A stretch of 64,000 nucleotides of DNA from a virus, in IMG/VR virus record IMGVR_UViG_3300025674_000019, positions 32,001-96,000 of that record, one strand, 5' to 3'. The position numbers and the translations under genes were made by a program. This document shows, piece by piece, positions 17,963 to 60,098 of this stretch. The number at the start of each line of letters is the position of its first letter. Within the stretch, counting starts at the first letter, position 1. The notes beneath the pieces were generated by a model, which searched no databases, was not told the DNA's origin, and saw only the letters and a list, made by a program, of their open reading frames with translations.

Positions 17963-18734
17963 GAGGAGTCTCGGCAAATGCACTTGGAACCCCAGAGTCG
18001 GAAAGCTGGTCGTAGCCTATATATCCAAGACCTAGAGCTGCTAACCCGCCGAGCCCTGCTCTCTGCATCTTAACGTTTTTGAGCTGCTTAGATAAGCCTG
18101 AGCCTATGCGCTGCTCAGCAGTCAACGCGCCTTTAGCTTCTGCGAGAGCTTTCTGCTCAGCAGCTAAAGCCTCCCTAGCTGCCGCTTGCTCAGCCTGCTG
18201 TGCTTCTCGAAGTGCTTGAATATCACGTGTTAGTACCTCGGATTGTGTTCTATATGAGCGCATTTGTCTCTTTGCGGCTTGTTCTGCTTCTACAGCACGC
18301 TCTACTTTCATCATTTCCTTTGAAAGGTCTCTACTCGTATCTCTGAATCTGCCTCTGTAGTTTTCACCTATCCTTCGTGCCCTCTCAAGCTCACTTTCAA
18401 GTCCTTGGCGAGCTCTCAATTGATCGGCGGCCCCGCTCCTCATGAGATTTATTTCTGATATAAGAGCCTCCCGAGCCGCTGCTTGCTCCGCTTTGAGGGC
18501 TTTCATCTGCTCTCGTAGCATTGGTGCTTCGGACCTAGTAGTGGCTAGTTCTTGCATTTGAGTAGGAGTCAGGTTACTTGCTCTAGCTTCTGCTGCAGAG
18601 GGAATAAAGCGCCTTTTTGAGGACTCCTTAATAAGCACTTCAAGGGCAGTCTGACCGATGTCACTATCAATTGAAGCTGTCTTAAGGAAGTCTAGAGCTC
18701 CTTGTAAGTAAGAATCGTGAGCTAGCTTAGTCAT
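17928..18734 (-). CDS. K-x-A-motif coiled-coil protein with a C-terminal Gly-rich membrane helix
   Basis: YLQGALDFLKTAS near the N-terminus, a long coiled coil, then AGLGGLAALGLGYIGY. Confidence 0.6.
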   Translation of the reverse strand: MTKLAHDSYLQGALDFLKTASIDSDIGQTALEVLIKESSKRRFIPSAAEARASNLTPTQMQELATTRSEAPMLREQMKALKAEQAAAREALISEINLMRSGAADQLRARQGLESELERARRIGENYRGRFRDTSRDLSKEMMKVERAVEAEQAAKRQMRSYRTQSEVLTRDIQALREAQQAEQAAAREALAAEQKALAEAKGALTAEQRIGSGLSKQLKNVKMQRAGLGGLAALGLGYIGYDQLSDSGVPSAFAETPPSQPLGPPLAV

Positions 18735-18869: not shown

Positions 18870-19427
18870 TTAGCTTAGAGCTTTGTACGCCCCATAGCCG
18901 AGACCACTCAATGCTGCGGTACCTCCGAGAGCGAGAGCGAGATTCCTCTGGCGCTCTGCAGCTGCTTCTTCCTCTGCTTGAGCAGCAGCGAGAGCCTGAG
19001 CCTGAGCTGCCGCGATCTCATCGCTGTCGTCGAGAGCAGAGGAGATTCCTAGGCCTGCTGCGGTAAGAGCTCCTGCGCCAACAGCTCCCAGACCAAGGTC
19101 GCCCAATCCTTGAGCTCTGCGTTCAGCCATTCGGCCAGCTGCCCCAAGAATACCACGATTTTTCATAGCGTCACGTAGGGCAGCGGCCTCGCCGCCGGCG
19201 AACGCGGGCATAGTTAGTGACTTCATTTTTAAAGCCTCTCGAGCTGCGCCCACATCCTTACCCAAGAGCTTGGCTGCGCCCCCCTCGACTAACTTCTTAG
19301 CGCCTGCCCTAAGGCCCTGAAGAGCGACCTTCTCCAGCTCATTGTAGCTAGCTACTTTGATCTGTGGGTCAACGTTTAGCTGAGAAAGAGTTTCTGCAAC
19401 ACCCTGTAAATATGCCTGATTACTCAT
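18870..19427 (-). CDS. K-x-A-motif protein with two Gly-zipper membrane helices
   Basis: AYLQG, IKVAS and LEKVA motifs; helices LGLGAVGAGALTAAGLG and LALGGTAALSGLGYGAYKAL. Confidence 0.6.
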   Translation of the reverse strand: MSNQAYLQGVAETLSQLNVDPQIKVASYNELEKVALQGLRAGAKKLVEGGAAKLLGKDVGAAREALKMKSLTMPAFAGGEAAALRDAMKNRGILGAAGRMAERRAQGLGDLGLGAVGAGALTAAGLGISSALDDSDEIAAAQAQALAAAQAEEEAAAERQRNLALALGGTAALSGLGYGAYKALS

Positions 19428-19537: not shown

Positions 19538-19720
19538 ATGCTGAGAGAAATTCTCTCGTTTACTAAAACAATAGGCAAGTATTGCCTTTCTGCTCTAGAA
19601 TTTCTAGGTAGTGCTACAGGCATGGGTGCGCTAAGCTTCCTCAGCATAGTTTACAACCCCTTCATGCTAATTATTACTGTACCTGTAGGCATATACTTGT
19701 ACGTAGAGGGTGAACGTTGA
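19538..19720 (+). CDS. small membrane protein
   Basis: AGGAG RBS; hydrophobic 60-aa ORF. Confidence 0.55.
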   Translation: MLREILSFTKTIGKYCLSALEFLGSATGMGALSFLSIVYNPFMLIITVPVGIYLYVEGER

Positions 19721-19733
19721 CTGGAGATTAAAT

Positions 19734-20453
19734 ATGGAACTAAGTACAGAAGCACTAGAAGCTGCGTGCAAACTAGCATATGAACTAGGCCAGCAGCGTG
19801 CAAATAATGACTGGGACCTTCTTACGAAAGAAGCTAGCTGGAGGCAGCTGGGGTCTGAGTTCCTGGGGGGAGCTAAGGCTTTGGCTAACCGGCAGACATT
19901 CCAGTCAGGTAGGCAAGCAGCCAGAAGCGCTATGGAAAACCCAGCACTTACGGGCGCTGCTGGTGGGTTTAAAGACCTTGCTAGAACTGCCGGACAACAG
20001 ATGGCTCAGCCTTTTAAGAATGTGTACCAGACATTTAGGGGTAAAGGGTACCAAGGAGCTGTATCCCGAGGAGACGCTAATGTAGAGGCGGCGGCTAAGA
20101 GGCTTCAGGCTGCTACTACCACTGAAGCTAAGCAGATTGCCCAGAAAGAGCTGGCAGAAGCCCAGCGAGCGCTAGATACTCAACTCAAGAGCTTCGGCAG
20201 CTATGGTTTCTCTAGCCCTCAAGCGGCAAGAGCTGCAGGGTCTAGAAACTACTTTGGGGCAGGCGGAGCGCTAGAAGGCCAAGCGGGTAACGTCGCAGCT
20301 GCGGTTGGCGCTGGTGCTCTAGGTACAGCGGGAATATACGGTGCTGGGCAAATGGTCGCTGGGTCTCCGCAAAATACATACGTAACTAACGTGCAGTCTC
20401 AGCAGGCCCCGCATGAGTACTACCTGAACCAGCTAAGCGGCATGTTCTCGTAG
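19734..20453 (+). CDS. K-x-A-motif protein with a Gly-rich membrane helix
   Basis: ATG at 19734 with GGAG RBS; CKLAYELG and TKEASW motifs; helix AAAVGAGALGTAGIYGAG. Confidence 0.6.
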   Translation: MELSTEALEAACKLAYELGQQRANNDWDLLTKEASWRQLGSEFLGGAKALANRQTFQSGRQAARSAMENPALTGAAGGFKDLARTAGQQMAQPFKNVYQTFRGKGYQGAVSRGDANVEAAAKRLQAATTTEAKQIAQKELAEAQRALDTQLKSFGSYGFSSPQAARAAGSRNYFGAGGALEGQAGNVAAAVGAGALGTAGIYGAGQMVAGSPQNTYVTNVQSQQAPHEYYLNQLSGMFS

Positions 20454-24819: not shown

Positions 24820-26631
24820 ATGTCTGCTACCAAATTTAAAGTCAAGCAAGTCAAGAACGACTCTGAGACAGGGTTAGAAGCCTTCGTTGAGTTGCCCATT
24901 GACCAAGAAGAAACCACTCGCTTGATGCCCAGTGGAGGGAGCGTAGATATCGGGTCTAGCACCTTTAACTGGGGAGATGCCTACCTTGGGGACTTGGAGT
25001 GTGGCGTTATCTCGTGCCTATCGATTAACGCCTCTAACGGAGATATACCAATATCTACTAACCTAGACGTTCAAGGGTTCATAACTGCGTCAAGTACGAT
25101 AAGTACGTCCGGTGTTCTGGTGTCGAATGAGCTAAGGGCGCAGGAAGGTTTTGGTATCAACATAACTTCGGATACGAACGTTATTGTTGATATCGACCAT
25201 AATGACAATAGTCTTGGCGGTAACTACTTTAAGGTTAGAAAAGACTTTGAAGACCCTAGCGGACCTGTTGATCTACTTACTCTCGCTGAGAGCGGTAACC
25301 TAGAGGTACTCGGAGACATAAGTGCTGCTAGCCTTAGCCTGACGGGAGAGGTAAGTGCAGCAGACCTATCCTTGTCTGGCAGTGTATCTACAGACTTATC
25401 TCTAGACGGAAAGCTAGAAGCTTCCGGAGAAGATCCTCTGATTATAGATGCTTCTAGTGTTGTAATAGAAAACTCCAAGACAGCTAATACGTCTTCAGTA
25501 ACCCTGAGAGACAGTATTAACGCAAATAGCTCTATCTCTTTAATAGAGGGAGAGGGCCTATTCGGAGAAGCGAGTAACTATGGCTTCCAGTTAGAGTATA
25601 ATGGAAGGCTCATGCCTAATAGCTTATCCCTAAGGAGTGGCTATGGGACTCTTACTGCCGATATCTTTACCGTTGTAAGAGATGTAAGCGGCGTTCCTTC
25701 ATCCGATATAGAGTTCAAGGGTCTTATTACCTCAGATAATGATACGGCAGCAGAGCAAGGGGGCGTTCGGAGCACCTACTTCGGGGGAGGGCCTGGGTCG
25801 CAAAACGCTATACGGCTCACTACAGTAGACGGGAATGGTAACTTTAACCCGCACACCACAGATACTGGCACTTTCTATGTAAATGGGCCCAAGGGTGACG
25901 ACGGTAAGCTTTCCATAGAGGCTTTCGATATAGACCTAGTTACAGACGGGCACGTACGTGTAGCCCTGGATCACAATAGCAACGGGACTTTCCAGGTCAA
26001 GGATAGTAACAACGACATAGTGTTCAGGGCGAGAACTGGTACTGTGGATAGGCTTCTAGTGGAAAGCTCCCTAGAGACAGCCATAGATAATGCTACTGTA
26101 TCGAATAATAATAGCCTTAGACTGCTGGTGGTAGACCCTACGGGGCATATATACAAGAGTGATGAAAACTCGCACTTGCTACTTAACGCTCCTTTTACAG
26201 GAACCCATGTTTACGCTTCTGCCGACGAGTTACCTCTGGGCTCTAGTGTAAGTCTAGATGCGGGCACGCTTGCGCTAACTACAAGCGCATCCCAGGCTAA
26301 CTGCGTAGGTATAGTACAGAGTAAAGAGCTGGCTACAGAGGATAGCCCACATACTACCTCTCTAGGAGAAGTAATTACCTCTGGCAACATCTACTACGTC
26401 GCAGCAGTAGGTGACTCCATCAAAGGAGGCTTGCGAGGCTTCAAAGTCTGCAACGAAGGCGGAGATATCTCTGCGGGCGACCTACTCGTTACTAGCTCTG
26501 TGTCGGGACGACTCATGAAGCAGGCTGATGATGTGGTCCGAGCGAGCACTGTTGGTAAAGCCATGCAGTCCGTAACCTTTAACGATCAAGGCCAGGCAGA
26601 TAATGTCTACGGCTTTCTCTACTGCGGGTGA
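24820..26631 (+). CDS. tail fibre/spike protein with a C-terminal intramolecular-chaperone (peptidase G2-like) domain
   Basis: Beta-rich G/S/D repeats; C-terminal FTGTH...VCNEGGDISAGDLLVTS...MKQADD...TVGKA...YCG. Confidence 0.65.
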   Translation: MSATKFKVKQVKNDSETGLEAFVELPIDQEETTRLMPSGGSVDIGSSTFNWGDAYLGDLECGVISCLSINASNGDIPISTNLDVQGFITASSTISTSGVLVSNELRAQEGFGINITSDTNVIVDIDHNDNSLGGNYFKVRKDFEDPSGPVDLLTLAESGNLEVLGDISAASLSLTGEVSAADLSLSGSVSTDLSLDGKLEASGEDPLIIDASSVVIENSKTANTSSVTLRDSINANSSISLIEGEGLFGEASNYGFQLEYNGRLMPNSLSLRSGYGTLTADIFTVVRDVSGVPSSDIEFKGLITSDNDTAAEQGGVRSTYFGGGPGSQNAIRLTTVDGNGNFNPHTTDTGTFYVNGPKGDDGKLSIEAFDIDLVTDGHVRVALDHNSNGTFQVKDSNNDIVFRARTGTVDRLLVESSLETAIDNATVSNNNSLRLLVVDPTGHIYKSDENSHLLLNAPFTGTHVYASADELPLGSSVSLDAGTLALTTSASQANCVGIVQSKELATEDSPHTTSLGEVITSGNIYYVAAVGDSIKGGLRGFKVCNEGGDISAGDLLVTSSVSGRLMKQADDVVRASTVGKAMQSVTFNDQGQADNVYGFLYCG

Positions 26632-26635
26632 TGCT

Positions 26636-27202
26636 ATGAACTACATTGAAGATACTATAGGTGAAGAGCTAGAGAAGACTGCTCTGAAGGGGCTTAGGCA
26701 AGCTATAGCTAATAATAAAGGTAAATCGACATTAATCGGAGCTACCGTAGGTCTGCCTGTAGCTTACTCTCTGCTGCAGTCTGCTAGGGAGGCAGACAGA
26801 GAAGCTGGTGGAATCCCTCAAGCGCTAGATGACGCTATGGACGGAGTAGACTCCGGACTAGATGAGGTGGATCGGATTATAGATGAGGGCTTTTCAGATA
26901 AACAAAAAGCGCTAGCTGCTTTGGGAGCTTTGGGTCTCGCTGGGGTTGGCGGGTACAAAGCGTATAAGAGTCTGAGTGGAAGGGAGAAGGTGTCTAAGTT
27001 GAGTCCAGCAACTAAAGATGCCCTAAAAACTGTAGTTCCATTCTACCTTGGAGTGGGCGGCCTAGGCACCGCTGCCTACTATGGGACTAGGAGCCCAGGG
27101 GGTGACAGTCAAGGCGAAAAGAAGGAAAAAAAGAAGAAAGAGGATACCTTTAAGTTGCTTAAGGAATTAGCCAAAAAAGAGTTATATGCTCGGTTCTACT
27201 AA
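26636..27202 (+). CDS. K-x-A-motif protein with three hydrophobic Gly-rich helices
   Basis: ELEKTALKG and EKVS motifs; ALGALGLAGVGGYKAYK and YLGVGGLGTAAYYG helices. Confidence 0.6.
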   Translation: MNYIEDTIGEELEKTALKGLRQAIANNKGKSTLIGATVGLPVAYSLLQSAREADREAGGIPQALDDAMDGVDSGLDEVDRIIDEGFSDKQKALAALGALGLAGVGGYKAYKSLSGREKVSKLSPATKDALKTVVPFYLGVGGLGTAAYYGTRSPGGDSQGEKKEKKKKEDTFKLLKELAKKELYARFY

Positions 27203-27658: not shown

Positions 27659-29788
27659 CTACTTCTTTCTTTTAGCTTTGCCTTTGGACTTGCGCTCTAG
27701 GGCTGCGCGCAACGCTGGAATACCTACAGCTGCAGCGCCGGTAGCTGCAAGAGCGCCTCCGACTGTATATGGGTTATCAACTGCGTAGTTGCTAGCGCTA
27801 CGTAGGCCGCGCATAGCGCTATCTCCTAGTGATGACCCAGTTGCGGCTAAGTACCTTCCAGCCTGGCCTAGTAGGTTAGCTTCATCAGAAAAAGGCGTAG
27901 TCAGTGTTTGCTGTACGCTCTCAGCTGCACTGTCTATTGGGCTTCTATCTCTGTTATAGAGGTATAGAGCTGTGCCTAGACCAGTAGCGCCTACTGCAGC
28001 TTTACCCGCATCGCCAGCGGCCGCGCGTAAGGCTTGCTCTTGAGCATCTAAAAGATCCCTAGAGTACTGCTCCTGGGCTGTATTGAACTGCTGGGTATAC
28101 TCATCTTTGACCTGCTTTCGGGTGCTCTTGGTCTTTGCTTGACCCTTAAGCTCCTTTAGCTGTTGCTTCAAGAAATCTCTTCTAGACTGGTCACCAGCGG
28201 AGAGGGTTTTTTGGCTAACTAAGTCCTTAAGATCTTTCTCCATGCGCTGAACTTGCCTTGTAGCCTTATCCCTGCGCTTTACTACTTCTTCAGCTACTGC
28301 TTTAGTGTCTTCAGCTAGGTTCTTTGGGGCTGATTTCCCTGCTGCCCTTAGGCGGCCTGCAGCCGTATACCGCTTTGCTAGCATATCTAAGAGGCTAGCA
28401 GTCTTTGGCATCTCAGGGGCTACAGGCTGAGAGATATTAACCTGGCCAAGTAGCTGAGGGGCAGCAGCCTGGGCTTCTTCAGCGCTGTACCCCATGTTAG
28501 TGAGGTAAGCCACGATCTCGTTGTAGCTCTGGTTGTAGGCTTCTAGCTGCTTGTCGTACTCAAGTTGCTCTGGAGTTTTATCCGGAATGGCTTCAACCTG
28601 AGGGGCCGCTGCTTCTGGGCTAGCATACATTTGGCTGTACGCTGAGTACACCTCTTCTGGGCTGTAACCCATGGAGATATAATCTTCTGGGCTGTAGGTT
28701 TGTACCTGAGGCTCGTAGCCCATAGACGAGTAGCCCTGCTGGGTGTCGAAGGTAACCTCTGGCTCATAGCCCATAGAAGCGTACTGGTCTTGGGAGTAAG
28801 AGGGCTCTGCCTCGTAAGCCATGTTGATGTAGTCTTCTGGGCTGTAAGTCTGAACCTCGGGCTCGTAACCCATAGTCTCATACTCTGAAGGAGCAGAGCT
28901 AAACATGTAGTTCTGCATAGTCTCTTTAGGTGCGTAGTAATTAGCCATGCCGTCGGCGGGCTCTGGCTGGTACTCCTCCAGATCTTCATTCTCGTACATG
29001 GGCTCGTAGTCAGAGACTGCGGCCAGCTTAAAGAGGTCTCTAGCGGACCGAAATCTGTTGCTACTACCCATAATAACTATCTCCATTGATGACTGCTTAA
29101 TAAGTGAACTCGCAGCGAGGTTAAGGGCTCTCATGGCCTGAAGTCGTTGGTGATCCGCCTGCTCGGCAGCGTTAAGTACTCTGCCCATACGCTTCTCTAG
29201 GTACTCCCTGTCCGAGAGTAGCCGCTTATTCTTACGCCTAGAGACCCGCTCTACTATGTTTTTTATATCTCTGTACTCACCGACTCCTTGACCTAGGAGC
29301 CTTTGGTCTACGTACACGCTGGAGTTACGGTCCCACTTCTGATTGCCTAACTCAGCTGCGGCATATCCAGGGTCGTAAAACACACCGCCGCCAACTGATG
29401 GCGCGCGCCTATCAGCGGGGTCTGTCCAACCATGAGTTCGCAATGCTGCAGTTACAACCCTCGATTGAGTGCCTGGGACAGAGTACGTTTGGCTAATCCC
29501 CTGCTGTATCTGAGCGATGCCCTTGCCAGTAGCAGAGGGGGCTGCCGGAGGAGGAGTAAGGTTCTCCTTGAGAGGGGCTGGCTCAGGCTTTCCTAATGGT
29601 ACCGCTACTTGAGGCTCTGGCTCTCCCATAGGTACTGGAGGTGCAAGCGCCTGGTTGGGTTGCGCGGGCATATCATCTTTGAGACCGGGCTCTTGCATCG
29701 CGCTATTATTCTGGCGCCCGATCTCCTGAGCAAGTTTCTCATCCTGCTCATGATCATAAGGATCGCCGTCCATAGTAAGGTAAGGCAT
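27659..29788 (-). CDS. K-x-A-motif modular protein (709 aa) with Tyr/Glu repeats and C-terminal Gly-rich helices
   Basis: IKQSS, FKLAA and PKTAS junctions; MGYEPEVQTYSPEDY repeats. Confidence 0.6.
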   Translation of the reverse strand: MPYLTMDGDPYDHEQDEKLAQEIGRQNNSAMQEPGLKDDMPAQPNQALAPPVPMGEPEPQVAVPLGKPEPAPLKENLTPPPAAPSATGKGIAQIQQGISQTYSVPGTQSRVVTAALRTHGWTDPADRRAPSVGGGVFYDPGYAAAELGNQKWDRNSSVYVDQRLLGQGVGEYRDIKNIVERVSRRKNKRLLSDREYLEKRMGRVLNAAEQADHQRLQAMRALNLAASSLIKQSSMEIVIMGSSNRFRSARDLFKLAAVSDYEPMYENEDLEEYQPEPADGMANYYAPKETMQNYMFSSAPSEYETMGYEPEVQTYSPEDYINMAYEAEPSYSQDQYASMGYEPEVTFDTQQGYSSMGYEPQVQTYSPEDYISMGYSPEEVYSAYSQMYASPEAAAPQVEAIPDKTPEQLEYDKQLEAYNQSYNEIVAYLTNMGYSAEEAQAAAPQLLGQVNISQPVAPEMPKTASLLDMLAKRYTAAGRLRAAGKSAPKNLAEDTKAVAEEVVKRRDKATRQVQRMEKDLKDLVSQKTLSAGDQSRRDFLKQQLKELKGQAKTKSTRKQVKDEYTQQFNTAQEQYSRDLLDAQEQALRAAAGDAGKAAVGATGLGTALYLYNRDRSPIDSAAESVQQTLTTPFSDEANLLGQAGRYLAATGSSLGDSAMRGLRSASNYAVDNPYTVGGALAATGAAAVGIPALRAALERKSKGKAKRKK
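28660..28885 (-). repeat. coding tandem repeats (MGYEPEV[Q]TYSPEDY-like)
   Basis: Recurrent ggctcgtagcccat and tcttctgggctgta units on the + strand. Confidence 0.7.
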
Positions 29789-50655: not shown

Positions 50656-51480
50656 TCACAGCTGCCTAATGCTAGACTGCATCATCTTGGTAAAGTTTAG
50701 GTTTGTTTTACCAGTAAGCTCAATGGCTCTGATGCCTGACTCTAGAGATACTACCTCATCACTGGGAGTATCTGTGCCGCATAGCGCATATTGGTAAGTA
50801 CCTTGGTTAGTTAGCTTAAATACATTACCAAAAATGTTCTTGTGATACTTAGTAATATTCCCGGCCTTTATAGCGTGCTCTCCTCCATCCCATATGTTTG
50901 AGCAAGAGATACCGCCTACAGCAAGGCAGCCCTTAACATCGTTCCAGAAGTATTGATTATTCTGGATATCTGCGGGGCCCTCCATATAGATATCTACATA
51001 GATTATATCGTATTTTTCTCCTGCCTTGTTCGCCTTCTGCAGGAACTTATTAGCGTCTTCCCCGACTAAACGAGTGTTAGCGTCAGGCATGAACTCAAAG
51101 TGCTCCTGGGCTACCTGGAACATGAGCGGGCGAAGGTCTACTATAGTCTTCTGCACTTCTGGAAAGTTATCTATCCAGAACTTAGGAAGGCTGCCTCCGC
51201 CCATTCCCAAGAATAATACTTTCTTAGGACTAGGGTGAAGCGCCGACATAAAGCACATCTTTTGGATGTACTCTAGCTCAGGTATATTAGGGCTAGATAA
51301 ATTAAGCCGGGATTGTACCCCGGTAGCGTTCTTCTTAGTGAACTGTATATCTTTGAAGATCCCGTCCCTAAGAAGCACAAAGACTTTGCCGTGAGAGTCT
51401 TCGTACTCATCTAGGTACTCTTCTTCTGCGTAGTACGCTACCTTAGTCTGGTAGTTAGGTTCTGCTCTAACTAGTTTTTT
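50656..51480 (-). CDS. spermidine-synthase-like SAM-dependent methyltransferase domain; no start codon of its own, probably entered by slippage from the upstream gene
   Basis: VLFLGMGGGSL, GEDANKFL, YDIIYVD and LAVGGISCSN; the frame is open back to the A9 run at 51475-51483. Confidence 0.7.
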   Translation of the reverse strand, partial: KKLVRAEPNYQTKVAYYAEEEYLDEYEDSHGKVFVLLRDGIFKDIQFTKKNATGVQSRLNLSSPNIPELEYIQKMCFMSALHPSPKKVLFLGMGGGSLPKFWIDNFPEVQKTIVDLRPLMFQVAQEHFEFMPDANTRLVGEDANKFLQKANKAGEKYDIIYVDIYMEGPADIQNNQYFWNDVKGCLAVGGISCSNIWDGGEHAIKAGNITKYHKNIFGNVFKLTNQGTYQYALCGTDTPSDEVVSLESGIRAIELTGKTNLNFTKMMQSSIRQL

Positions 51481-52433
51481 TTTAAGTTGGATTTCTTAGT
51501 AAAGTTATTTACTAGAGCAGCGGCTAGTGCGGCTACCCCCGCTGGAAGAGCCACGTTCTTGCCGATTGAAGACATCAAGTCCTGCGCGGGATCTCCAGTA
51601 GGGGCGGGGAACACAATATTGTTAGACACTGCTGCCCCGCTAGAAGCACCTGGGGACATAGAGACTGGAAGTTGGTTAACCGAGTGAGCTGCTTGCTGCC
51701 TAGCCTGCTCCTGCTGAGCAAGTAAAGTGTCAAGCTTAGTTCCTAGCCTGTCTACTTTGGCCATCGCAGACTCGGCGTTAAACCCGCTCTGCCTTCTAAT
51801 CTGAGCGCGCTGCATGTGCCTGGGAATAGAAGGCTTATCCCTCATAGTAGCTACAGCAAGATCATTAATTTGATCCTGAAGGTACTGCAAGTTTAAGCCA
51901 CCGTCCATTTGAGCTGTTTTCTTCCTAGCGCTGCCGTCAGCTTTCTGGTTCTTAGGCCAAAGCTCTCGGCGCGACCAGTAGTTAGCACTGAACTTATCGT
52001 CCTTGCCTTTGATCCCCGCACTACGAGCAAGGTAGCTCTTCTTCGCCTTTGCAGAGTAGTTATGCTTATATCCGCGAGCACCAAAGTTAACTACTTTGAC
52101 CTTGTCGCCCTTTTTAGCCAGCACTCGCTTTTTGTACTTGCTACCCTTAGGTGCTGCCTTTGGCTTGTTGTACCCGGGAAAGATCTCGTCCCTGTATTTT
52201 AGCTTACCAGAGGGAAGCCGCTCTACTCCTTCTGGGGCTGCGGTTTTCTCTACTATTGAGCTTTCAGGAATACCTCTTTGCTCTGCTAAAACGCTCTTCC
52301 ACTTACTTCCATACCTCTTTTTAAGGCTAAGTATATTCTTGTTATTTGGGTCATAACTCATGCCGCGGAGGGAAGCCTCCGCGGTCTTCTCAAGCAGATT
52401 CTGTAGTAGCCTAACACTAGGGTCGGTGCTCAT
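51471..52433 (-). CDS. K-x-A-motif modular protein containing a DUF5754-like basic module
   Basis: LEKTA, VEKTAA and KKTAQ motifs; VVNFGARGY...SYLAR...KFSANYWSRRELW. Confidence 0.6.
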   Translation of the reverse strand: MSTDPSVRLLQNLLEKTAEASLRGMSYDPNNKNILSLKKRYGSKWKSVLAEQRGIPESSIVEKTAAPEGVERLPSGKLKYRDEIFPGYNKPKAAPKGSKYKKRVLAKKGDKVKVVNFGARGYKHNYSAKAKKSYLARSAGIKGKDDKFSANYWSRRELWPKNQKADGSARKKTAQMDGGLNLQYLQDQINDLAVATMRDKPSIPRHMQRAQIRRQSGFNAESAMAKVDRLGTKLDTLLAQQEQARQQAAHSVNQLPVSMSPGASSGAAVSNNIVFPAPTGDPAQDLMSSIGKNVALPAGVAALAAALVNNFTKKSNLKKN

Positions 52434-52472: not shown

Positions 52473-55400
52473 TCAGTCGCCCAACTTGCTGCGCTTTTTA
52501 CCTTTGTGCAAGCCGTGATCTGCGTGCTGCTCGCCTTCACGAGTAGCTTTGTTCTTCTTACGAATCGCCGCCTTTAGCTTATTGCGACCCTTCTTAGAAG
52601 ACTTTAGCGCGTCTATAGACTTAGCTGGTAGGTAGACCCCTTTGCTCTTGGCTTCTTTAGTGGTTAGATCTTGCTTGCTGCGCATAGCTCTAGCTACCTG
52701 TAGTAGCTTAGCTGCGTTTTCGTTAGCTCTAGACACTATACCAGGATCCATCTCTCCTGTTTCTACGTTAAATTCATCCCCAGCAACCTGGACCCCGCCC
52801 CCTATACCGATGCCTTTAATCTCAGTATCCAGCTGGTTAGCCAGACCACCAAGTGCTAAAGCAGACCTGGGTGTGCCCGCACCAGATAGGAGAGCGTAAG
52901 GCTTGTACTGCTGGTTCTCTTTATCTAGTGTCCTGTGAAGGAACTGCATTACTCTACCACTGGGACCATAGTTAAATACGGGGGTAGACAGAACCATAGC
53001 GTCTGCGTCGGTTAATCTTTTCTTATAATCATCGTACCAGTCTGTATCCCAGTCGTAGGTATCAGGCATGTCCCCCATATCACGCATGTCCATCCAGTCA
53101 ACTTCGGCACCTTGGCTCTCCAGATAGTCCCTGTAAGTTTCTGCAAGTGCGCGAGACCTAGACAGCTCCTCAGGGTCGTTACCTGTGGAGCCGCTTAGGA
53201 TAGCCACCCTAAGCCTGTTTTTTGCTGCCTCTGAGGCTAAAGATTTTGCAGCAGCAAGCTTTTTCAAATCAGATGCATATGTCATAGAACCCTCCTTTTT
53301 ACGCTCACCGCTCCACTGCCAGTCTTGCTTAGTCCATTTCTTAAGCTTGTTATTCTTAGCAGTGGGCTTTTTGCCTTTGTACCTTCCGCCTGAGTCTTTA
53401 TAGTACTTTACAGCTAGCTGAGCTGCACGAGCAGACCACTTGCCGCCCATCTTAGCCTTTGCCCGTGCCTTAGCTGCAGCCCACTTCTTAGGGTCTCGCT
53501 TAGTAGCGGTGCCTTTGGGCTTTTTGGCTTTGGAGGTCTTCTCGGAGCCGCCCATAGCGTATAACCCAGCAGCCCCTAATCCTGCGACGGGGATACCTAG
53601 CATTAAGGCTCTTCTTAGTTCCGGGTTGTTAGCAGCTGCAGCCGCGACTTCCTCTGCTGCAGAAGCCATTGTAGGCTGGCTAGCAACAGCTTCTCTTAGG
53701 GACTCTGTAGCCTGAGTACTTGGAGGAGGAGATACCTTAGAAAGAGCTGTGTCCACAGGCTGCATTCGCTGCTGTCTTTGCACTACCCTCTCAAGGGGGG
53801 TAGGCGTAACTACTGGAGTAGGGGCAACTACTGGGGTAGGAGCGACTGGAGCCCTGGAAACTGGAGTAGGAGCAACTACTGGGGTAGGCGTAACTACTGG
53901 AGTAGGGGAGACTGGAGCCCTGGAAACTGGAGTAGGAGCAACTACTGGGGTAGGCGTAACTACTGGAGTAGGGGCAACTACTGGAGTAGGCTTAGGCCTA
54001 ACCACCGGAGCACTAAAGTCTAGCGCTAGTTGCTCACTTCTAGGGGCGACAGCCGCGGACTCCGCAGACGCAGAGACCCTCCGCACAGGGCCAGCTGCAG
54101 GCTCAAATAAGAATCTTTGCCCCCTCTCAGTTGTCTGAGTAGGCAGTACCACAGGAGCTGGGGCGGGGGCGGCAAGCTGTGCTTGGACCTGAGCTTTAGC
54201 TCTTTCTTGAGCTCTAGCCTTATCTCTCCGTAGCCTGCGTATACGGTTGTCTTCCTTTACTCTGCGCATAGCCTCAGCTCTGGCACCCTCCGCAGCCTGG
54301 TACTCTCTCCTTAGTTGACCTAAGCTATCAGGAGATAAAGGCTTGAGGTTATGTTCCCACATATGGTTTATACCTAGTGGATCTTTGCTACTAAAGGTGA
54401 GCTCATTCCACCTCTGGTATAGAGGGTCCTGCTTTTGGACGTACATCTCTATTTCTCTCTGAAGAGGATGCGCTGCCCCTATTTGAGAGCTATGAATTCT
54501 TTCAGAACCTACGCGGCCCATATTCAGCTCATTCTCTAGAATCTTAAGCCCTCCACCACCACTTCTACCCTTATTAAGAGAGTTGACTACGCTAGAGGTT
54601 ATCTGCTCTGCTGATGCCTGAGGGTTAGCTGCCTTTGCGCCCTCAACGAGGCGCTGAACAGTCTCTAGCGCATTACCTTTGAGCTTAGCTTGCTTAGTTA
54701 CACTGGCGTTCTTCTGCATAGAAGACGCTATAGCACTAGATAGTTTATAGTTATTTTTCATAGCAGTACCGTCTCCTCCCGCAAACACGGAGGCCGCTAC
54801 CCCGCCCCCAGCCATACCTGTACCAACGAGGGCATTCATCCAGTTAGCCCCAGTAGAACCTAGATCTTTGTACCGACTGTTTATGTACTTACGGCCTCCA
54901 GCCCCAAGAGCCAAGCCGCCGATAGCTCCTGCGAGTGCTCCCTGAGCACCCTTGTTTTCTCCAGAGGCTGCGTACCCGGCGAGGGCCCCCGTAGCAGCGT
55001 CGAAAGCTCTGAACTTCATAGAAGCAGACTTGCGCATAACAGACTCCATCGGTGCTTGGCTATACAGCCTTTTAGGGGCTCCTCCAGTGCTTTTAGGGCC
55101 AAACCTCATAGTAGCCCCAAGTAGAGCACCTCGTGCCTTTTGCTTAGCTCCTTGAACTCGCTTCTCTATAGAGGCAGCTAGCCGGCCGCTAATAGTATTC
55201 TCCCGGTTCCATTGCCTACGCTGCTCCGGAGTCATACTCCTAAGCCTGTTTCTCTCGGCTATAGCTAGACTAGACCTAGTCCTAAGTTCTCTACCTAGAC
55301 CAGCCTCTACTGCGCCAACAGACGGAATTAAGGTCTGAGCTTTTTGGGCTACTTGATCAGTAAGGGTGGTCCCCCTCCGTATAGCCCCATCTTGGAGGGC

Positions 55401-58400
55401 ATTCAGCACCTCTCGATGGCCTGCAGCTACTCCTTTATTCGCATAAGCGTCAATAGCCCTCTGGGTATCTTTAGCTACGTAGGACAAGTCATCTACCTTA
55501 TCTATAGCTTGCCTGGCCCTATTTGCTATATCTTTATGTACTGTTTGCCAGCCCCTAGGATCTAGTGTTCTGCCTAAGCGACTTCCTATATTTTCTAGGT
55601 TAAGAAGCAATCCCGGTAGCTCCGCCACTGCAAGGGTACCCTGAGGGCTAAGAGGCGCAGCCAAAGGGTTATACATAGCCATTACGTTAGCGGCAGTCTC
55701 AGATAAAGACGCATGCTGACTAAAAGGGTTTACGGCCCTAGACACCTCTCTTTGTATATTTTTAACTTTTCTAGGAGCCTGAGCAGTCTCCCAGAGTATC
55801 CTACCCAAGGCTTGCCTACGGGTAAGGTTATCCGTCTTCTGAACAAATGGCGTTATATCCTTAACGTGCCCGGCGCCTATCAGGCTGAGGTAAGCCTGCT
55901 CTAGAGTCTCTAAGTTTTTTTGCTTTATGTAGTTTCCTAGTACTCCCGCCGTTTTTGATCTGAGGCCTTTTTCTACTATAGCTTTTTTTAGGCGAGACCC
56001 CGCGTCCTCCCTAGCCATAACAAACTCCACTATCTGCTTGGAGTACAGGTTGTCGCTGGGGAAGTGTAGGCCAGCCTGAAGCCTGCTGTGCTGTATAGTG
56101 TGCCCTAGCTTCTCCCATAACTCCGAGTACTCAGGGTACTTCTCAGTGTAGAAGGCTTGTAGTCCGTAACCCATCATCGCATGGCCTGAAGGGTAGCTAG
56201 GTGTATCTGAGCTAGGAGGAGGCATTACATTTAGATTTACGCCATGGTACTCAGCGAGAGACCAAGGCCTAGGCCGCAGGAAGATGTACTTAAGGTCAAA
56301 GGCTATCTTGTTAAAGTCTTCGTAGATACCTTCCGCTTGGTCTTTGAGCGGATCGATACCTAGTTCTTCGCAGACTATGTAGAATAGCTGCTCTGGCTCT
56401 CGATCACACATCATCATAGTAGGTTCATCTATGATGGGGTTGTCCATGTGATACTTAACTTCTAGCAACTCTTCTCTAGTAGCCTCAGAGTCGTTAGGCG
56501 GATAGTCGGGCTTAGGTAGATACTCGGTAGGTATAGTAAGAACTTTGCGCTTCTGCTTGATGTAGGGCTGGAAGTCCGGGGCTACTTCTGTGGTGTACTT
56601 TAGGTTGGCTATAGCACTAGCTAGCCCTGCGGTTTTTAGGGCACCACTAAACATTTCGGGCGTGTAACCAGATGAACTGTATGCTCCCTCGCGCATACCG
56701 GCATGGTACTTTTTTAGCCCTTCTTCCAGCGTTTTATTTTCTACTAGCTTGATTAGAGGCACATCCCCGTAAGAAACAGGGCCCCTAGTAATTACCATAT
56801 CCGGGTTAGCCTTTAGTCCCTGTTTGAGCCACCCCTGCGACGCAACAGCAGATCTAGAAGCCATCAATTTCTCGGCTTGCTTGCGTGGTATGCCAGTTAC
56901 AGAGATAGGGTATACACTAATAGCTGCAAAATCATTTAATGAGTGCGGTGTGCTCGCGGTAGGGGCTCGCCCAAGGCCTCCCCATCTAATCTGTTGTGGG
57001 CCAGGTGCAAAGGCAGGGTTTTGCACCCCCCTAGCAGTTATAGATCTCGCGCCCATTCCCATTGATGACTCTTGGAGTATTGCGTTTAGCTCCTCCAGGC
57101 CCAGCTTATATTCTTTACCTAGAGCTTCTGCCGAGGCAGAGGCGGGGTTGATCCCTCTGTTCTTTAGGTATCCCTCCAATTTCTCAGGAGATATAGTAAA
57201 CATAGCATGAAAATCCACCAGGTCATCAGCACTCTGGGTAGGTGCAGTAGCTGGTGCGGGGGCATGAGCGGGAGCCGGCTTTGGTGGCGGTGGAGGAGGA
57301 CCGGCAGGCTTTTTCTTTATAGCGCTAGCTAAGCCTTTTAGCTTACCCCTGCCTAGGTACGCTCCGGCAGCAGTTAAACCAGCTCCAGCTAACCAAGGTG
57401 CCCAAGAAGACTCTTGCGGTTGGGCAGGGCTGTAAGCCTTAGGCTGGCTAGTATTATTGCCCCTGTAAGCCTTGTAAGCCCTGTAACCTCCGTAACCAAG
57501 TGCTCCGGCAGCGGCAGCTCCTGCTGCGTAAGCACCTAGGCCTGGGCCTTGGTTAGTAGTTTGGGCGCTAGCTGTTTTCTCAATTATAGCACTAGCTAGC
57601 CCTGCGGTTTTTAGGTGAGCAGGTAGTCCTGCAAGGAAACTATCTATCCTACCTGCCACTCCTTTCTGACCTTGCTGCATTAAGTAGGGAATAACATTGT
57701 CCTGTAATCCTAGGCTATCTTGCCACTCAGTATGCCCTCTTTTACGCAGAGTTTCCCTGAGCACCCTCTTATGGTACAGGCCCGTTTTACCCGGGTTTAC
57801 GGCTGCCATAGCAGAATTTGCAATATGAGGAATTGCGCCTTGCCTGCCATACAGAGCCGCGTACGCATCCTGCACTGGAAAGCTAGCGTCTCGGTTTCTA
57901 AGGGCGCCTAAGCCATAATATGCTTCAAACTCTTTTTGCTTGGCATCTAAGACTTTTCCTAGCGCCTCTTGGTCCTGAGAAAACCTTTTTGCAGAAGCAT
58001 CCGCTTTAGCTTGGTCAAACTTAAATGGGTCCTTACCCCTTACGTAAGAGCTAGCTTGTTCTTCAGTGTAGCCCATGCGCTTAGTAAGATGCTGGTGCAG
58101 CTTCTGAGAATCCGACATGGCAGCAGTGCCAGCAGTGCCAGCAGTGCCAGCAGGCTTCTTCTTTATAGCGCTAGCTAAGCCTTTTAGCTTACCTCTACCT
58201 AAGTAAGCTCCGGCAGCAGTTAGGCCAGCCCCAGCTAACCAAGGTGCCCAAGAAGACTCTTGCGGTTGGGCAGGGCTGTAAGCCTTAGGCTGGCTAGTAT
58301 TATTGCCTCTGTAAGCCTTGTAAGCCCTGTAACCTCCGTAACCAAGTGCTCCGGCAGCGGCAGCTCCTGCTGCGTAAGCACCTAGACCTGGTCCTTGGTT

Positions 58401-59507
58401 AGTAGTTTGGGCGCTAGCTGTTTTCTCGTACTTCTCCACATCAACTCCCCAGTTCCTCAGAGCAGCAGCTCTACGCTTAGTAGGGTTCTTTAAGTACTGA
58501 GCTAAGTGCCTAGCCTTAAAGCTCTTCCAGCGCTTGATCTGCCTCTCATCATCGTCTGTACGGCGTCCCCTTGAGTACCTCTCGTACCACTGCAACCAGC
58601 CCTTAGGGTCTTGCTTATTGATCCAGTGCTCAGGCCACTCCTTCATGGAAGCTTCACTCGGAGCGTCACCGTACACTTGGTCGTAGACTCCTAGCTCCTT
58701 TAGTTGCTCTGGAGATAAGTCTGGGGTGAAGTCGGATTCACTAGCACTCTTCTCCAGTATGGCCCTATGTAGCTTAAGCCTACCAGCAGCTTCTTCTGCA
58801 AGCAGTGCCTCATATACATCTAGCTCTTCAGAGCCAAGAACCTCAGGAGCTTCTTTAGAGATAAACTCGCTACGCATTAGCTGAGGCCCCCACTCAAAAT
58901 TAGAGGGATCAAGCTCGTATAAGTGACCCTTGCGTCCTTTGTAGACCTTCTCAAAAGCCCCTGGGTACTGCTCCGTCATATGAAGAGTAGGATCACCATT
59001 ATAGGTACTTTGCTCAAAATCGGAGTCTCTCCAAGGTGCCATAAATGAGATAGCTTGTGCTCTACTAGGGGTACCAAACACTACAGGCTCATCTTCTGCT
59101 AAGTAGTGAGGCCTAGCTTCAAACTTATCTATCTTATTCTGACTTCCGTGGTAGATACGAGAAGGGGCTTCAGGGGCATCAAATTGTTTTTGATACTCTA
59201 TTTTTTCCTGCACGGCTTTTCTAAGTGCGTTCGCCTCTTCTTCAGACATATCTGAGTAGGTAGCAGAGGTCTTCTCGGCTATAGCCTCAGCCAGCTTATC
59301 CTTCTTGCTTCTATTAGTATCCCTACTGACTACTCGCCAGTTGCTAGGGTCGTTACTACCACCTCGGCTCAAAGGCACTTTGTGGTCTACTTCTTGGCCA
59401 GGCTTAGTGTCAGAGTTTCTATTAGCCTTGTTACGCATGGCTCTGCGCTTCTTTTGCTCTGGCTTAGAATGATACTCTTTGTATTCTTTCTTGTAGTCTC
59501 TAGCCAT
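52473..59507 (-). CDS. 2344-aa modular polyprotein: HNH, ART-like, DPxGW domain, TM repeats, PAP2 phosphatase, Pro/Thr linker, DUF5872-like, FMN reductase
   Basis: EVDHKVPLSRGGSND; YHGS...HLYEL; DPKGWLQWY...DDERQIKRW; RPRP, PSYPSGH and SRLQAGLHFPSD; KWSARAAQL; ILSGS...LSTPVFNY. GGAGG RBS. Confidence 0.8.
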   Translation of the reverse strand: MARDYKKEYKEYHSKPEQKKRRAMRNKANRNSDTKPGQEVDHKVPLSRGGSNDPSNWRVVSRDTNRSKKDKLAEAIAEKTSATYSDMSEEEANALRKAVQEKIEYQKQFDAPEAPSRIYHGSQNKIDKFEARPHYLAEDEPVVFGTPSRAQAISFMAPWRDSDFEQSTYNGDPTLHMTEQYPGAFEKVYKGRKGHLYELDPSNFEWGPQLMRSEFISKEAPEVLGSEELDVYEALLAEEAAGRLKLHRAILEKSASESDFTPDLSPEQLKELGVYDQVYGDAPSEASMKEWPEHWINKQDPKGWLQWYERYSRGRRTDDDERQIKRWKSFKARHLAQYLKNPTKRRAAALRNWGVDVEKYEKTASAQTTNQGPGLGAYAAGAAAAGALGYGGYRAYKAYRGNNTSQPKAYSPAQPQESSWAPWLAGAGLTAAGAYLGRGKLKGLASAIKKKPAGTAGTAGTAAMSDSQKLHQHLTKRMGYTEEQASSYVRGKDPFKFDQAKADASAKRFSQDQEALGKVLDAKQKEFEAYYGLGALRNRDASFPVQDAYAALYGRQGAIPHIANSAMAAVNPGKTGLYHKRVLRETLRKRGHTEWQDSLGLQDNVIPYLMQQGQKGVAGRIDSFLAGLPAHLKTAGLASAIIEKTASAQTTNQGPGLGAYAAGAAAAGALGYGGYRAYKAYRGNNTSQPKAYSPAQPQESSWAPWLAGAGLTAAGAYLGRGKLKGLASAIKKKPAGPPPPPPKPAPAHAPAPATAPTQSADDLVDFHAMFTISPEKLEGYLKNRGINPASASAEALGKEYKLGLEELNAILQESSMGMGARSITARGVQNPAFAPGPQQIRWGGLGRAPTASTPHSLNDFAAISVYPISVTGIPRKQAEKLMASRSAVASQGWLKQGLKANPDMVITRGPVSYGDVPLIKLVENKTLEEGLKKYHAGMREGAYSSSGYTPEMFSGALKTAGLASAIANLKYTTEVAPDFQPYIKQKRKVLTIPTEYLPKPDYPPNDSEATREELLEVKYHMDNPIIDEPTMMMCDREPEQLFYIVCEELGIDPLKDQAEGIYEDFNKIAFDLKYIFLRPRPWSLAEYHGVNLNVMPPPSSDTPSYPSGHAMMGYGLQAFYTEKYPEYSELWEKLGHTIQHSRLQAGLHFPSDNLYSKQIVEFVMAREDAGSRLKKAIVEKGLRSKTAGVLGNYIKQKNLETLEQAYLSLIGAGHVKDITPFVQKTDNLTRRQALGRILWETAQAPRKVKNIQREVSRAVNPFSQHASLSETAANVMAMYNPLAAPLSPQGTLAVAELPGLLLNLENIGSRLGRTLDPRGWQTVHKDIANRARQAIDKVDDLSYVAKDTQRAIDAYANKGVAAGHREVLNALQDGAIRRGTTLTDQVAQKAQTLIPSVGAVEAGLGRELRTRSSLAIAERNRLRSMTPEQRRQWNRENTISGRLAASIEKRVQGAKQKARGALLGATMRFGPKSTGGAPKRLYSQAPMESVMRKSASMKFRAFDAATGALAGYAASGENKGAQGALAGAIGGLALGAGGRKYINSRYKDLGSTGANWMNALVGTGMAGGGVAASVFAGGDGTAMKNNYKLSSAIASSMQKNASVTKQAKLKGNALETVQRLVEGAKAANPQASAEQITSSVVNSLNKGRSGGGGLKILENELNMGRVGSERIHSSQIGAAHPLQREIEMYVQKQDPLYQRWNELTFSSKDPLGINHMWEHNLKPLSPDSLGQLRREYQAAEGARAEAMRRVKEDNRIRRLRRDKARAQERAKAQVQAQLAAPAPAPVVLPTQTTERGQRFLFEPAAGPVRRVSASAESAAVAPRSEQLALDFSAPVVRPKPTPVVAPTPVVTPTPVVAPTPVSRAPVSPTPVVTPTPVVAPTPVSRAPVAPTPVVAPTPVVTPTPLERVVQRQQRMQPVDTALSKVSPPPSTQATESLREAVASQPTMASAAEEVAAAAANNPELRRALMLGIPVAGLGAAGLYAMGGSEKTSKAKKPKGTATKRDPKKWAAAKARAKAKMGGKWSARAAQLAVKYYKDSGGRYKGKKPTAKNNKLKKWTKQDWQWSGERKKEGSMTYASDLKKLAAAKSLASEAAKNRLRVAILSGSTGNDPEELSRSRALAETYRDYLESQGAEVDWMDMRDMGDMPDTYDWDTDWYDDYKKRLTDADAMVLSTPVFNYGPSGRVMQFLHRTLDKENQQYKPYALLSGAGTPRSALALGGLANQLDTEIKGIGIGGGVQVAGDEFNVETGEMDPGIVSRANENAAKLLQVARAMRSKQDLTTKEAKSKGVYLPAKSIDALKSSKKGRNKLKAAIRKKNKATREGEQHADHGLHKGKKRSKLGD
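53800..54000 (-). repeat. coding tandem repeats (PTPVV[A/T], PVSRAPV)
   Basis: 18-nt units of the type actactgg(a/g)gtagg. Confidence 0.75.
57301..58427 (-). repeat. 281-bp near-identical direct repeat (57301-57581 and 58147-58427)
   Basis: Both copies encode EKTASAQTTNQGPGLG...KKKPAG. Confidence 0.85.
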
Positions 59508-59606: not shown

Positions 59607-60098
59607 ATGCGCCAGTCTGATGCAGACTACCTTACTATGCTCAGCGCTATTGCTGACTACGTCAGAAGTAATCCTCAAGACTATTACAATACCCAGAAGA
59701 TCGCAGGGTATATCCGTAGCGTGATGGGTGAGGAGAAACTTCCAAAGGAAAGAAGCGGAAGGATCTTCTCCGAGCTCTACGCTCGTAAAATATTCACTAG
59801 GAACAAGTATATGACTAGCGGAAAGCTGAAGAGCTACTTGGTCTATGTAGACCTCCGCAGTATCGAAAGGACTCTTGCACTTGCAGAAGAGAGCCCCGTA
59901 AAAGAGGCCAAGAAGGCTGTAAGGTCAGAGATTAGAGTATCTTACACTCTAGGGGGAGAGCCCGTTTCGGCTGAGTTCTATAAAAAGTTCTCAAGTCGAT
60001 TTACAGAAGAAGAGAAAGGTGCTAGCTACACCTTTAGAGGATCTAGCATCCCCGGAGGCCTCAACGCCCTTATTGAGTCTGTTCTTGAAGCCGACTAG
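59607..60098 (+). CDS. hypothetical protein, possible winged-helix DNA-binding protein
   Basis: AGGAGG RBS; helix-helix-helix-wing-like N-terminus. Confidence 0.55.
   Translation: MRQSDADYLTMLSAIADYVRSNPQDYYNTQKIAGYIRSVMGEEKLPKERSGRIFSELYARKIFTRNKYMTSGKLKSYLVYVDLRSIERTLALAEESPVKEAKKAVRSEIRVSYTLGGEPVSAEFYKKFSSRFTEEEKGASYTFRGSSIPGGLNALIESVLEAD

Follow-up and report, generated by a model that had tools for sequence, protein, structure and literature searches.

The internal proteins and Alt of phage T4 carry a capsid-targeting leader that is removed by gp21, with one leader per small protein and L/I-x-E sites; we know of no multi-enzyme polyprotein in T4. Alt was described as a packaged ADP-ribosyltransferase (ART) by Iyer, Burroughs, Anand, de Souza and Aravind in 2017, in a paper on polyvalent proteins, which are many-domain phage proteins delivered with the DNA (PMC5512222). 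In phage SPN3US the substrates of the head protease, which cleaves behind A-X-E, are the capsid protein, the portal, the ejection proteins and the protease itself (PMC10052503). Here we present the analysis of a modular polyprotein encoded by a single minus-strand open reading frame (ORF; 52473-59507, ATG start, 2344 amino acids plus stop codon) in a stretch of 64,000 nucleotides (nt), hereafter the window, which covers positions 32,001 to 96,000 of the IMG/VR virus record IMGVR_UViG_3300025674_000019. The parent record, from an uncultured aquatic phage, is 97,789 nt long (CheckV completeness 61%), and phage genes in it are a baseplate wedge family and a ribonucleotide reductase.

The polyprotein is a string of modules with a short motif, K-x-A/S followed by a small residue, at their junctions; its relatives carry the modules shuffled at this motif, and a motif of the same class is found in the head genes of relatives. 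The junctions are read here as cleavage sites because K-x-A is enriched in those head genes and conserved at the N-termini of their capsid proteins and proteases. The reading we prefer, with slightly more confidence than doubt, is that the polyprotein is a late precursor cut by the head protease into about 12 pieces that are carried in the capsid. The 2344-residue precursor would be made late in infection and incorporated into the prohead, where the head-maturation protease would cut it at K-x-[AS]-[SAG], most often E/Q-K-T-A-S. The pieces (HNH-like, ART-fold, PAP2, flavin mononucleotide (FMN) reductase, a very basic domain, Gly/Ala-rich hydrophobic hairpins and further modules) would remain inside the capsid and pass into the host together with the DNA; there, as first proposed, they may serve host takeover or counter host defences. 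With a single chain, all cargo would be loaded by one incorporation event, and with a site this short, modules could be added, lost or swapped while the rest is left undisturbed. The basic core and tail, kept by nearly every family member, are candidates for prohead recruitment. Cleavage, packaging and delivery are what we infer; by analogy with the herpesvirus assemblin, which cuts between Ala and Ser, the bond cut may be the one that follows the Ala or Ser of the motif.

Polyvalent proteins likewise join many unrelated enzymatic domains in one phage polypeptide for which delivery with the DNA, for immediate action, is proposed; they also include ART-type domains and nucleases, have mosaic, fast-changing architectures, and are likened by their authors to viral polyproteins (PMC5512222). 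They comprise 2-15 unrelated domains, a range into which the polyprotein falls with HNH, ART-fold, PAP2, FMN reductase and at least six further modules. The processing of polyvalent proteins is ascribed to an embedded peptidase (a zincin-like MPTase or a C-terminal assemblin-like domain), and many have a MuF or portal anchor (PMC5512222), whereas no peptidase or MuF domain was found in the polyprotein and a repeated site, matching that of a presumed separate head protease, stands at nearly every junction. The polyprotein lacks the defining feature of polyvalent proteins, the embedded peptidase, as well as their usual anchors, but would work similarly. The terms PAP2 and flavodoxin/FMN reductase are absent from the main text of the polyvalent-protein paper (PMC5512222).

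The phages phiKZ and SPN3US share with the proposed system a head protease, a three-residue motif and abundant internal or ejection proteins as substrates (PMC10052503). Their virions carry a multisubunit RNA polymerase (PMC10052503), and relatives of the present phage encode beta and beta' subunits beside their head genes. The motif in phiKZ and SPN3US is A-X-E, cut after Glu, and nearly all cuts remove N-terminal propeptides (PMC10052503); here the motif is K-x-A/S then S/A/G, and the sites separate a dozen folded modules. The layout of sites in relatives is that by which known head proteases mark their substrates: the capsid protein and the protease bear short leaders, and scaffold-like proteins contain many sites. 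Compared in relatives, the K-x-A of the head genes is of the same class as the K-x-A/S of the polyprotein junctions. T4, too, resembles the proposed system in that its prohead takes up enzymes, including an ADP-ribosyltransferase, which are shortened by cleavage at a short motif and later injected; T4-like leaders are present here on standalone proteins of the basic core module (about 12 residues, ending K-[LI]-A-A) and on several window proteins (K-[TV]-A-S). Eukaryotic RNA viruses also cut one translation product at short repeated sites, but there is no homology, their proteases are embedded, and the proteins released serve replication or form the capsid and are not accessory cargo. In the literature searched, which was incomplete, the topic of phage polyproteins processed by a prohead or maturation protease led only to the polyvalent-protein paper and the work on SPN3US and T4, and no account of K-x-A or of a system like the present one was found; the words 'protease', 'polyprotein', 'FMN' and 'Nudix' are absent from the main text of the paper describing the RNA-polymerase-encoding Caudovirales clade. 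Judged from sequence, what is new is the beads-on-a-string build with a putative trans-acting site at almost every junction, the putative K-x-A/S site itself, the types of predicted cargo, and cargo modules that are 74-92% identical between phages otherwise about 40% identical.

The pattern K-x-[AS]-[SG] occurs at 13 sites in the polyprotein (residues 79, 253, 362, 451, 633, 644, 733, 958, 1185, 1493, 1588, 1599 and 1990), and the junction motif is located between the modules. The narrower pattern K[TSN][AS][SG] was observed 8 times against 0.88 expected, a count reached by none of 2000 shuffled sequences; one of the eight lies within a duplicated unit. The original prediction, that unrelated modules are strung together and meet at copies of the motif, is borne out. 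Its proposal that segments between motifs be modelled was followed for two modules (YHGS and PAP2), and in both AlphaFold2 (AF2) models the motifs stand at or beyond the edges of the folded cores. Among 95 non-redundant sites in 35 family proteins (the weak match P0007 and P0008, the window's own fragment, are left out), the flanks are nearly uninformative, E, S or Q being slightly favoured ahead of the Lys; the residue classes K, T, A/S and S/A/G of the core were already fixed by the search expression.

The codons of the motif vary from junction to junction while the residues are kept, and it is therefore the peptide, not the DNA, that is conserved. The exception is a stretch of 31 nt at the junction LKTAGLASAI (56610-56640), identical to 57585-57615, which encodes the same junction. 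A DNA-level recombination signal as the sole cause of the motif was rejected because the codons differ among junctions. Signal peptidase I was rejected as the cutter, as its rule does not accept Lys at -3, the position at which Lys stands here.

It is also conceivable, though unlikely, that the chain remains an uncut polyvalent multidomain protein, possibly delivered whole, in which K-T-A-S is a favoured flexible linker inherited with the modules. Polyvalent proteins with 2-15 domains do exist and some are packaged unprocessed, for example the N4 virion RNA polymerase (PMC5512222); moreover, several junctions are degenerate, and the 31-nt exact repeat shows that junction DNA can spread by duplication. 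A linker does not explain why the codons of the motif vary while the residues stay constant, why relatives have stop codons at or beside a junction, or why, as set out below, K-x-A is enriched in relatives in the head genes only, and is conserved near the N-termini of the capsid protein and protease in six of six relatives.

Regarding relatives of the polyprotein, a length-matched search yielded five further metagenomic polyproteins (1316-2234 amino acids) and one weak match that was dropped, and a search among shorter proteins yielded 30, or 29 relatives once a fragment of the window itself is set aside. The N-terminus of the polyprotein, MARDYKKEYKEYHSK, is identical in the relative P0003. 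The relatives carry the same modules in other orders, separated by K-T-[AS]-[SAG]. Across them, HNH is followed by the YHGS domain, FMN reductase, the Gly zipper, the basic core or another module, FMN reductase is preceded by HNH, Nudix, the basic tail, the core or a second FMN reductase, and the PAP2 and DPKGW domains each have five or six neighbour contexts; nearly all joins hold a K-T/E/Q/I-A/S-S/A/G site between the modules. In two related IMG/VR contigs, L001 and L002, the stop codon of the DPKGW gene lies at or beside the polyprotein junction ...VEKYEKTAS, and the basic core follows as a separate gene that lacks the FMN reductase insert. In a blind count of 63 breakpoints in the five other polyproteins, taken as the ends of alignments with at least 50% identity, 21 are no more than 10 residues away from K[TS][AS], where 5.4 would be expected. 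The earlier expectations that such domains usually occur as small standalone genes and that the locus is a hotspot for acquiring modules agree with these data: many modules were found as standalone genes, and relatives gain, lose and reorder modules at the motif.

The modules of the polyprotein are 74-92% identical to their counterparts in the related contigs G001 and G002, whereas mean identity across the 34 further ORFs in common with G001 is about 40%, with the large terminase and ribonucleotide reductase at 59.5% and 62.7%, respectively. This excess suggests lateral exchange of the putative cargo modules, or very strong constraint on them. Several family members show no excess of the loose pattern K.A[SAG], among them P0003-P0006, which use K-T-S-S. 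Cutting of the 35 proteins at the loose motif followed by single-linkage clustering placed most segments in one cluster and was dropped. A C-terminal tail of about 90 residues, which begins ...AY.[IV]G.KLA.A.F after the last K-T-[AS]-S site, is shared by P0010, P0019, P0020, P0022, P0027-P0029, P0034, P0035 and the ORFs 5087-6559 of L001 and 789-1787 of L002 and is absent from the window polyprotein; it may be a targeting or anchoring module.

The head genes were examined in G001, because the record of the present phage stops before its head genes. G001 is a 147-kb contig with 35 ORFs syntenic with this phage (about 40% mean identity), and it also has a multi-module ORF with the same junction style. 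Its head module contains 30 K.A[SAG] sites against 7.1 expected, whereas the 113 other ORFs contain 38 against 44.9. One of the head genes matches phrog_18299 'head maturation protease' (9.3e-12), and in this protease two copies of the motif (residues 31 and 231) closely flank the protease domain. Head modules were compared in six relatives: G001, and four further IMG/VR loci and Salmonella phage Arash, these five with protease identities from 74% down to 42%. All six keep K-x-A at two places despite changing surroundings, in the protease between residues 28 and 33 and in the capsid protein between residues 17 and 27; one of the six capsid-protein sites reads K-I-A-T. In Arash, gp220, gp223 and gp225 contain 7, 6 and 5 sites, numbers reached in none of 300 shuffles each, whereas the tail genes have none to two and are not enriched. 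The release of the modules by cleavage, as originally proposed, thus finds a counterpart in the K-x-A of the relatives' head genes, and its support is by inference.

The head module of Arash, a cultured 'orphan' phage (OQ632216.1, gp216-gp226), is related to that of the aquatic clade, with a protease 53% identical over residues 30-219 that is annotated merely as 'structural protein', and an RNA polymerase subunit gene is found among the head genes (loci L010/L011). In G001 a 1471-residue ORF directly upstream of the head module (L007, 10610-15025) joins RNA polymerase beta (Rpb2 domains) to the N-terminal domains of beta' (Rpb1 domains 1-2). The phage probably belongs to the RNA-polymerase-encoding Caudovirales clade. 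Searches of G001 and G002 with the Pfam models S77, S78 and Phage_capsid gave no match, because the head genes are too divergent for those models, and the G001 protease had no match among PDB sequences. PHROG searches with nine putative tail genes of G001 were mostly uninformative, and neighbours were therefore not called sheath or tube. In purified virions of Arash, 116 proteins are present, RNA polymerase subunits and several enzymes among them (PMC10585845), so that enzyme-rich capsids are plausible in this group.

A further explanation, which we regard as distinctly improbable, is that the head protease, or a different one, cuts the chain at the motifs into pieces that are not capsid cargo and act late in the infected cell or its membrane, for instance as anchors or as aids to assembly at the membrane. 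Several hydrophobic Gly/Ala hairpins and one strong hydrophobic helix would fit such a role, no capsid-targeting domain was found with Pfam or PHROGs, and modules of metabolic type (FMN reductase, PAP2 and, in relatives, Nudix) need no injection. Carriage in the capsid is better in keeping with the head proteases studied so far, which act inside proheads on proteins already incorporated (PMC10052503), with the many enzymes in the virions of the cultured relative Arash (PMC10585845), and with the gene next to the polyprotein, a segment of which matches a family of minor head and DNA pilot proteins.

Several observations count against the preferred reading of a head-protease precursor carried in the capsid. 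Neither in the whole polyprotein nor in its segments did Pfam or PHROGs recognise a capsid-targeting, portal-binding, MuF or peptidase domain, and hydrophobic Gly/Ala hairpins are unusual capsid contents. No homologue of the relatives' head protease was found in the 61%-complete record, and the head protease of the phage itself is assumed from synteny. The Arash genome holds no homologue of the polyprotein, and the polyprotein region of G001 is not itself enriched for K.A[SAG] (9 against 7.1 expected). Degenerate junctions exist (KPAG, KLSS and KEAK), and P0003 has no motif after its HNH module. Finally, 42 of the 63 breakpoints do not lie within 10 residues of K[TS][AS], and only 8 of the 63 are near the strict motif, against 3.5 expected; the remaining breakpoints are near degenerate sites or blurred by over-extension of alignments.

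The modules, all encoded on the minus strand, are described from the N-terminus; Pfam searches covered the whole protein (E up to 1) and the separate segments (E up to 10). Module 1 (residues 1-81, 59265-59507, ending ...AIAEKTS) is HNH nuclease-like. The earlier HNH label is supported, more weakly than those of PAP2 and FMN reductase, by several PHROG HNH families (3.6e-6 to 4e-3) and by phrog_4590 (1.3e-12), while the Pfam match (PF01844, residues 36-72, E 1e-3, 19.6 bits) falls below the cut-off of 21.4. The module is also N-terminal in P0003 and P0013-P0018.

Module 2 (residues 82-255, 58743-59264, ending ...AILEKSA) is the YHGS domain, for which an ART-like fold had been predicted. Its AF2 model has a mean confidence (pLDDT) of 95.7, with low confidence confined to the last ~4 residues. 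In a wide VIA-align search, the 50 rows listed are almost all ART-fold by title (Z 3.3-6.8) and include Tpt1/KptA, TreX, Arr, PARPs, RES-type proteins and the catalytic domains of pertussis and diphtheria toxins; Foldseek gave Arr, TreX and Tpt1 as top rows, only at E>=0.04. No Pfam family was found for the module or for any of its 51 aligned relatives. In the alignment of these 52 sequences H39-G40-S41, E98 and E133 are conserved at 90% or more, and the strand-2 aromatic residue is Phe, not Tyr, as compared with the H-Y-E/D or R-S-E residues of ARTs. An ART-like fold is accepted for the model, and the reading is limited to likeness of fold because the VIA-align Z values are moderate. The model also aligns to chain 9k3a_B in the PDB, a pre-ejectosome chain of cyanophage A4 with 1071 residues (Z 4.3), which raises the possibility of a YHGS-like domain in an ejection protein from the capsid interior whose structure has been solved.

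The YHGS family comprises 401 representative clusters at E<=1e-3, in proteins ranging from short ones to one of 2637 residues. The giant YHGS-bearing phage proteins P0045, P0059, P0068, P0073, P0084 and P0086 include RNA polymerase beta'-like parts, SNF2 helicases, ligase-like parts and kinases, with EK[QTSA]A[SA]-like strings between the parts. K.A[SAG] is enriched in 3 of the 16 other giant YHGS proteins tested (P0045, P0059 and P0068), and with so few enriched a wider 'code' is taken as a lead only. We tentatively suggest, with more doubt than belief, that K-x-A might serve as a clade-wide 'address-and-cut' code in RNA-polymerase-encoding aquatic phages, the domains that it flanks being capsid-loaded, released cargo that moves between phages much faster than the core genes.

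Module 3 (residues 256-364, 58416-58742, ending ...YEKTA) is the DPKGW...RQIKRW domain, which, as first described from this sequence, proved to be a conserved module without a family: it is 74-80% identical in L001 and L002, occurs also in P0002, P0006 and P0018, and has no Pfam match. Modules 4 (residues 365-453, 58149-58415, ending ...KKKPA, with a weak DUF1206 match at 7e-4) and 6 (residues 647-735, 57303-57569) are copies 1 and 2 of a Gly/Ala-rich two-helix unit. The duplication noted at the outset corresponds to two direct repeats of 288 nt, which differ at 15 nt; 13 of the differences fall within the 94 shared codons and all of these are synonymous, the amino acids being identical across 94 residues. 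Because the differences within the shared codons are all synonymous, both copies are seen to be under purifying selection. Between them lie module 5 (residues 454-635, 57603-58148, ending ...AHLKTA), to which no Pfam family or function was assigned, and an 11-residue spacer between two copies of the motif (GLASAIIEKTA, residues 636-646, 57570-57602).

These repeats bear on the possibility that the long ORF is an assembly chimera, or consists of genes fused by sequencing errors. The sequence is of metagenomic origin, it contains the 288-nt repeat and 18-nt tandem repeats, and the region lies at contig ends in L001 and L002. Such an artefact is nevertheless very improbable: five polyproteins of 1316-2234 amino acids from other assemblies share the junctions, one frame is open across 7 kb, the repeat copies are not collapsed copies, given their 15 differences with synonymous changes at all 13 positions within the shared codons, and sequencing runs from two other studies contain 0.89 and 0.79 of the sampled 31-mers. 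The shares of sampled words in the runs X4-X15 are small, including one RNA run at 0.11, and were not used as evidence.

Module 7 (residues 736-960, 56628-57302, ending ...GALKTA) has a Pro-rich start followed by a domain without a Pfam family and is 32% identical to residues 508-824 of P0004. Module 8 (residues 961-1187, 55947-56627, ending ...LRSKTA) is a PAP2 domain of the class A acid phosphatase/haloperoxidase type, as had been proposed, with matches to Pfam PF01569 (2e-6, 28 bits, cut-off 27.2) and to the class A acid phosphatase 7f18 in the PDB (1.4e-6). The motifs KX6RP, PSGH and SRX5HX3D are intact and read KYIFLRPRP, PSYPSGH and SRLQAGLHFPSD; the catalytic positions are invariant or at least 90% conserved in an alignment (A2) with 25 relatives of 168-253 amino acids. 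The AF2 model, made with about 20 extra residues per side, has a confident core at about residues 984-1174, and both KTAG motifs lie in the flanks of low pLDDT. Module 9 (residues 1188-1495, 55023-55946, ending ...VMRKSA) has 308 amino acids, no family and no assigned function, and has no match of at least 50% identity within the five other polyproteins.

Module 10 (residues 1496-1601, 54705-55022, ending ...SMQKNA) has hydrophobic peaks at residues 1520-1577; the Gly zipper named in the original prediction corresponds to a weak match only (Gly-zipper_YMGG, E 0.0036). Module 11 (residues 1602-1992, 53532-54704, ending ...GGSEKTS) consists of a charged/coiled part, PTPVV repeats and a single strong hydrophobic helix (residues 1967-1985), in agreement with the Pro/Thr linker and transmembrane segment noted earlier. 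Its 18-nt tandem repeats (53786-54001) encode PTPVV[AT] units, which are likely to be a length-variable linker and an assembly hazard.

The C-terminal part comprises three pieces. Module 12a (about residues 1993-2085, 53253-53531) is the basic KGTATKRDP...WQWSGE core domain, the most widely shared module, with 80-94% identity in P0002-P0006 and 91-92% in L001 and L002, and it also occurs as standalone proteins of 184-197 amino acids. It had been labelled DUF5872-like, a label without support: residues 1993-2092 gave no Pfam match at all at E up to 10, and the whole protein gave none to that family at E up to 1. Module 12b (about residues 2086-2286, 52650-53252) is an NADPH-dependent FMN reductase, and here the earlier assignment stands (Pfam PF03358 FMN_red, 4.2e-14, 52.8 bits, cut-off 24; YhdA/azoreductase in the PDB at ~1e-3). 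It is inserted between the basic core and the basic tail and is absent from this place in L001, L002, P0003 and P0006. The Lys/Arg-rich tail, module 12c (KGVYLPAK...KKRSKLGD, about residues 2287-2344, 52476-52649), is 61-79% identical in P0003, P0006 and L001. Look-ups in an atlas returned viral clusters only, plus DUF6886 on 27% of one cluster; they are weak and were not used.

The next gene downstream of the polyprotein (51471-52433, minus strand, 320 amino acids) belongs to the same system; its product is small, has several modules and carries the motifs EKTAE, EKTAA and KKTAQ. The middle module of this product is found fused within the polyproteins P0013-P0017, and one segment matches phrog_220 'minor head protein and DNA pilot' (1.9e-20). 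The same-strand neighbours of the polyprotein include, besides this phrog_220-like gene, a weakly tape-measure-like gene (4.7e-4), and no family was assigned to most neighbours. A 163-residue ORF without a family (59607-60098, plus strand) lies immediately upstream of the polyprotein gene and breaks the run of minus-strand genes. Megablast of the polyprotein gene and tblastn of its C-terminal module gave no match in the phage collection searched. Five further window proteins (17928-18734, 18870-19427 and 27659-29788 on the minus strand; 19710-20453 and 26603-27202 on the plus strand) have a short N-terminal leader (AYLQG, SYLQG or AYELG, ending K-T/V-A-S/L), then an Ala-rich stretch and, at the C-terminus, a hydrophobic Gly/Ala helix. 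This layout suggests that they, too, are head cargo trimmed by a protease.

Provided that the junctions are indeed protease sites, K-x-A/S with a small residue behind it would be a novel specificity for a head protease, and sequence would suffice to predict which mature proteins make up the virions of a large clade of uncultured phages. A single precursor would then load many enzymes into the capsid. The cargo would be unlike the usual nucleases and transferases, with PAP2, FMN reductase, Nudix hydrolases and an unclassified ART-fold family, a set that points to early manipulation of the host via small molecules or lipids. The identity of 74-92% among modules, compared with about 40% elsewhere, suggests an 'exchange market' of cargo modules. 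Should the K-x-A code prove true, it would be a natural plug-in system for the delivery of enzymes into bacteria, with a cargo that includes soluble PAP2, FMN reductase and Nudix hydrolases as well as membrane-inserting glycine-zipper hairpins.

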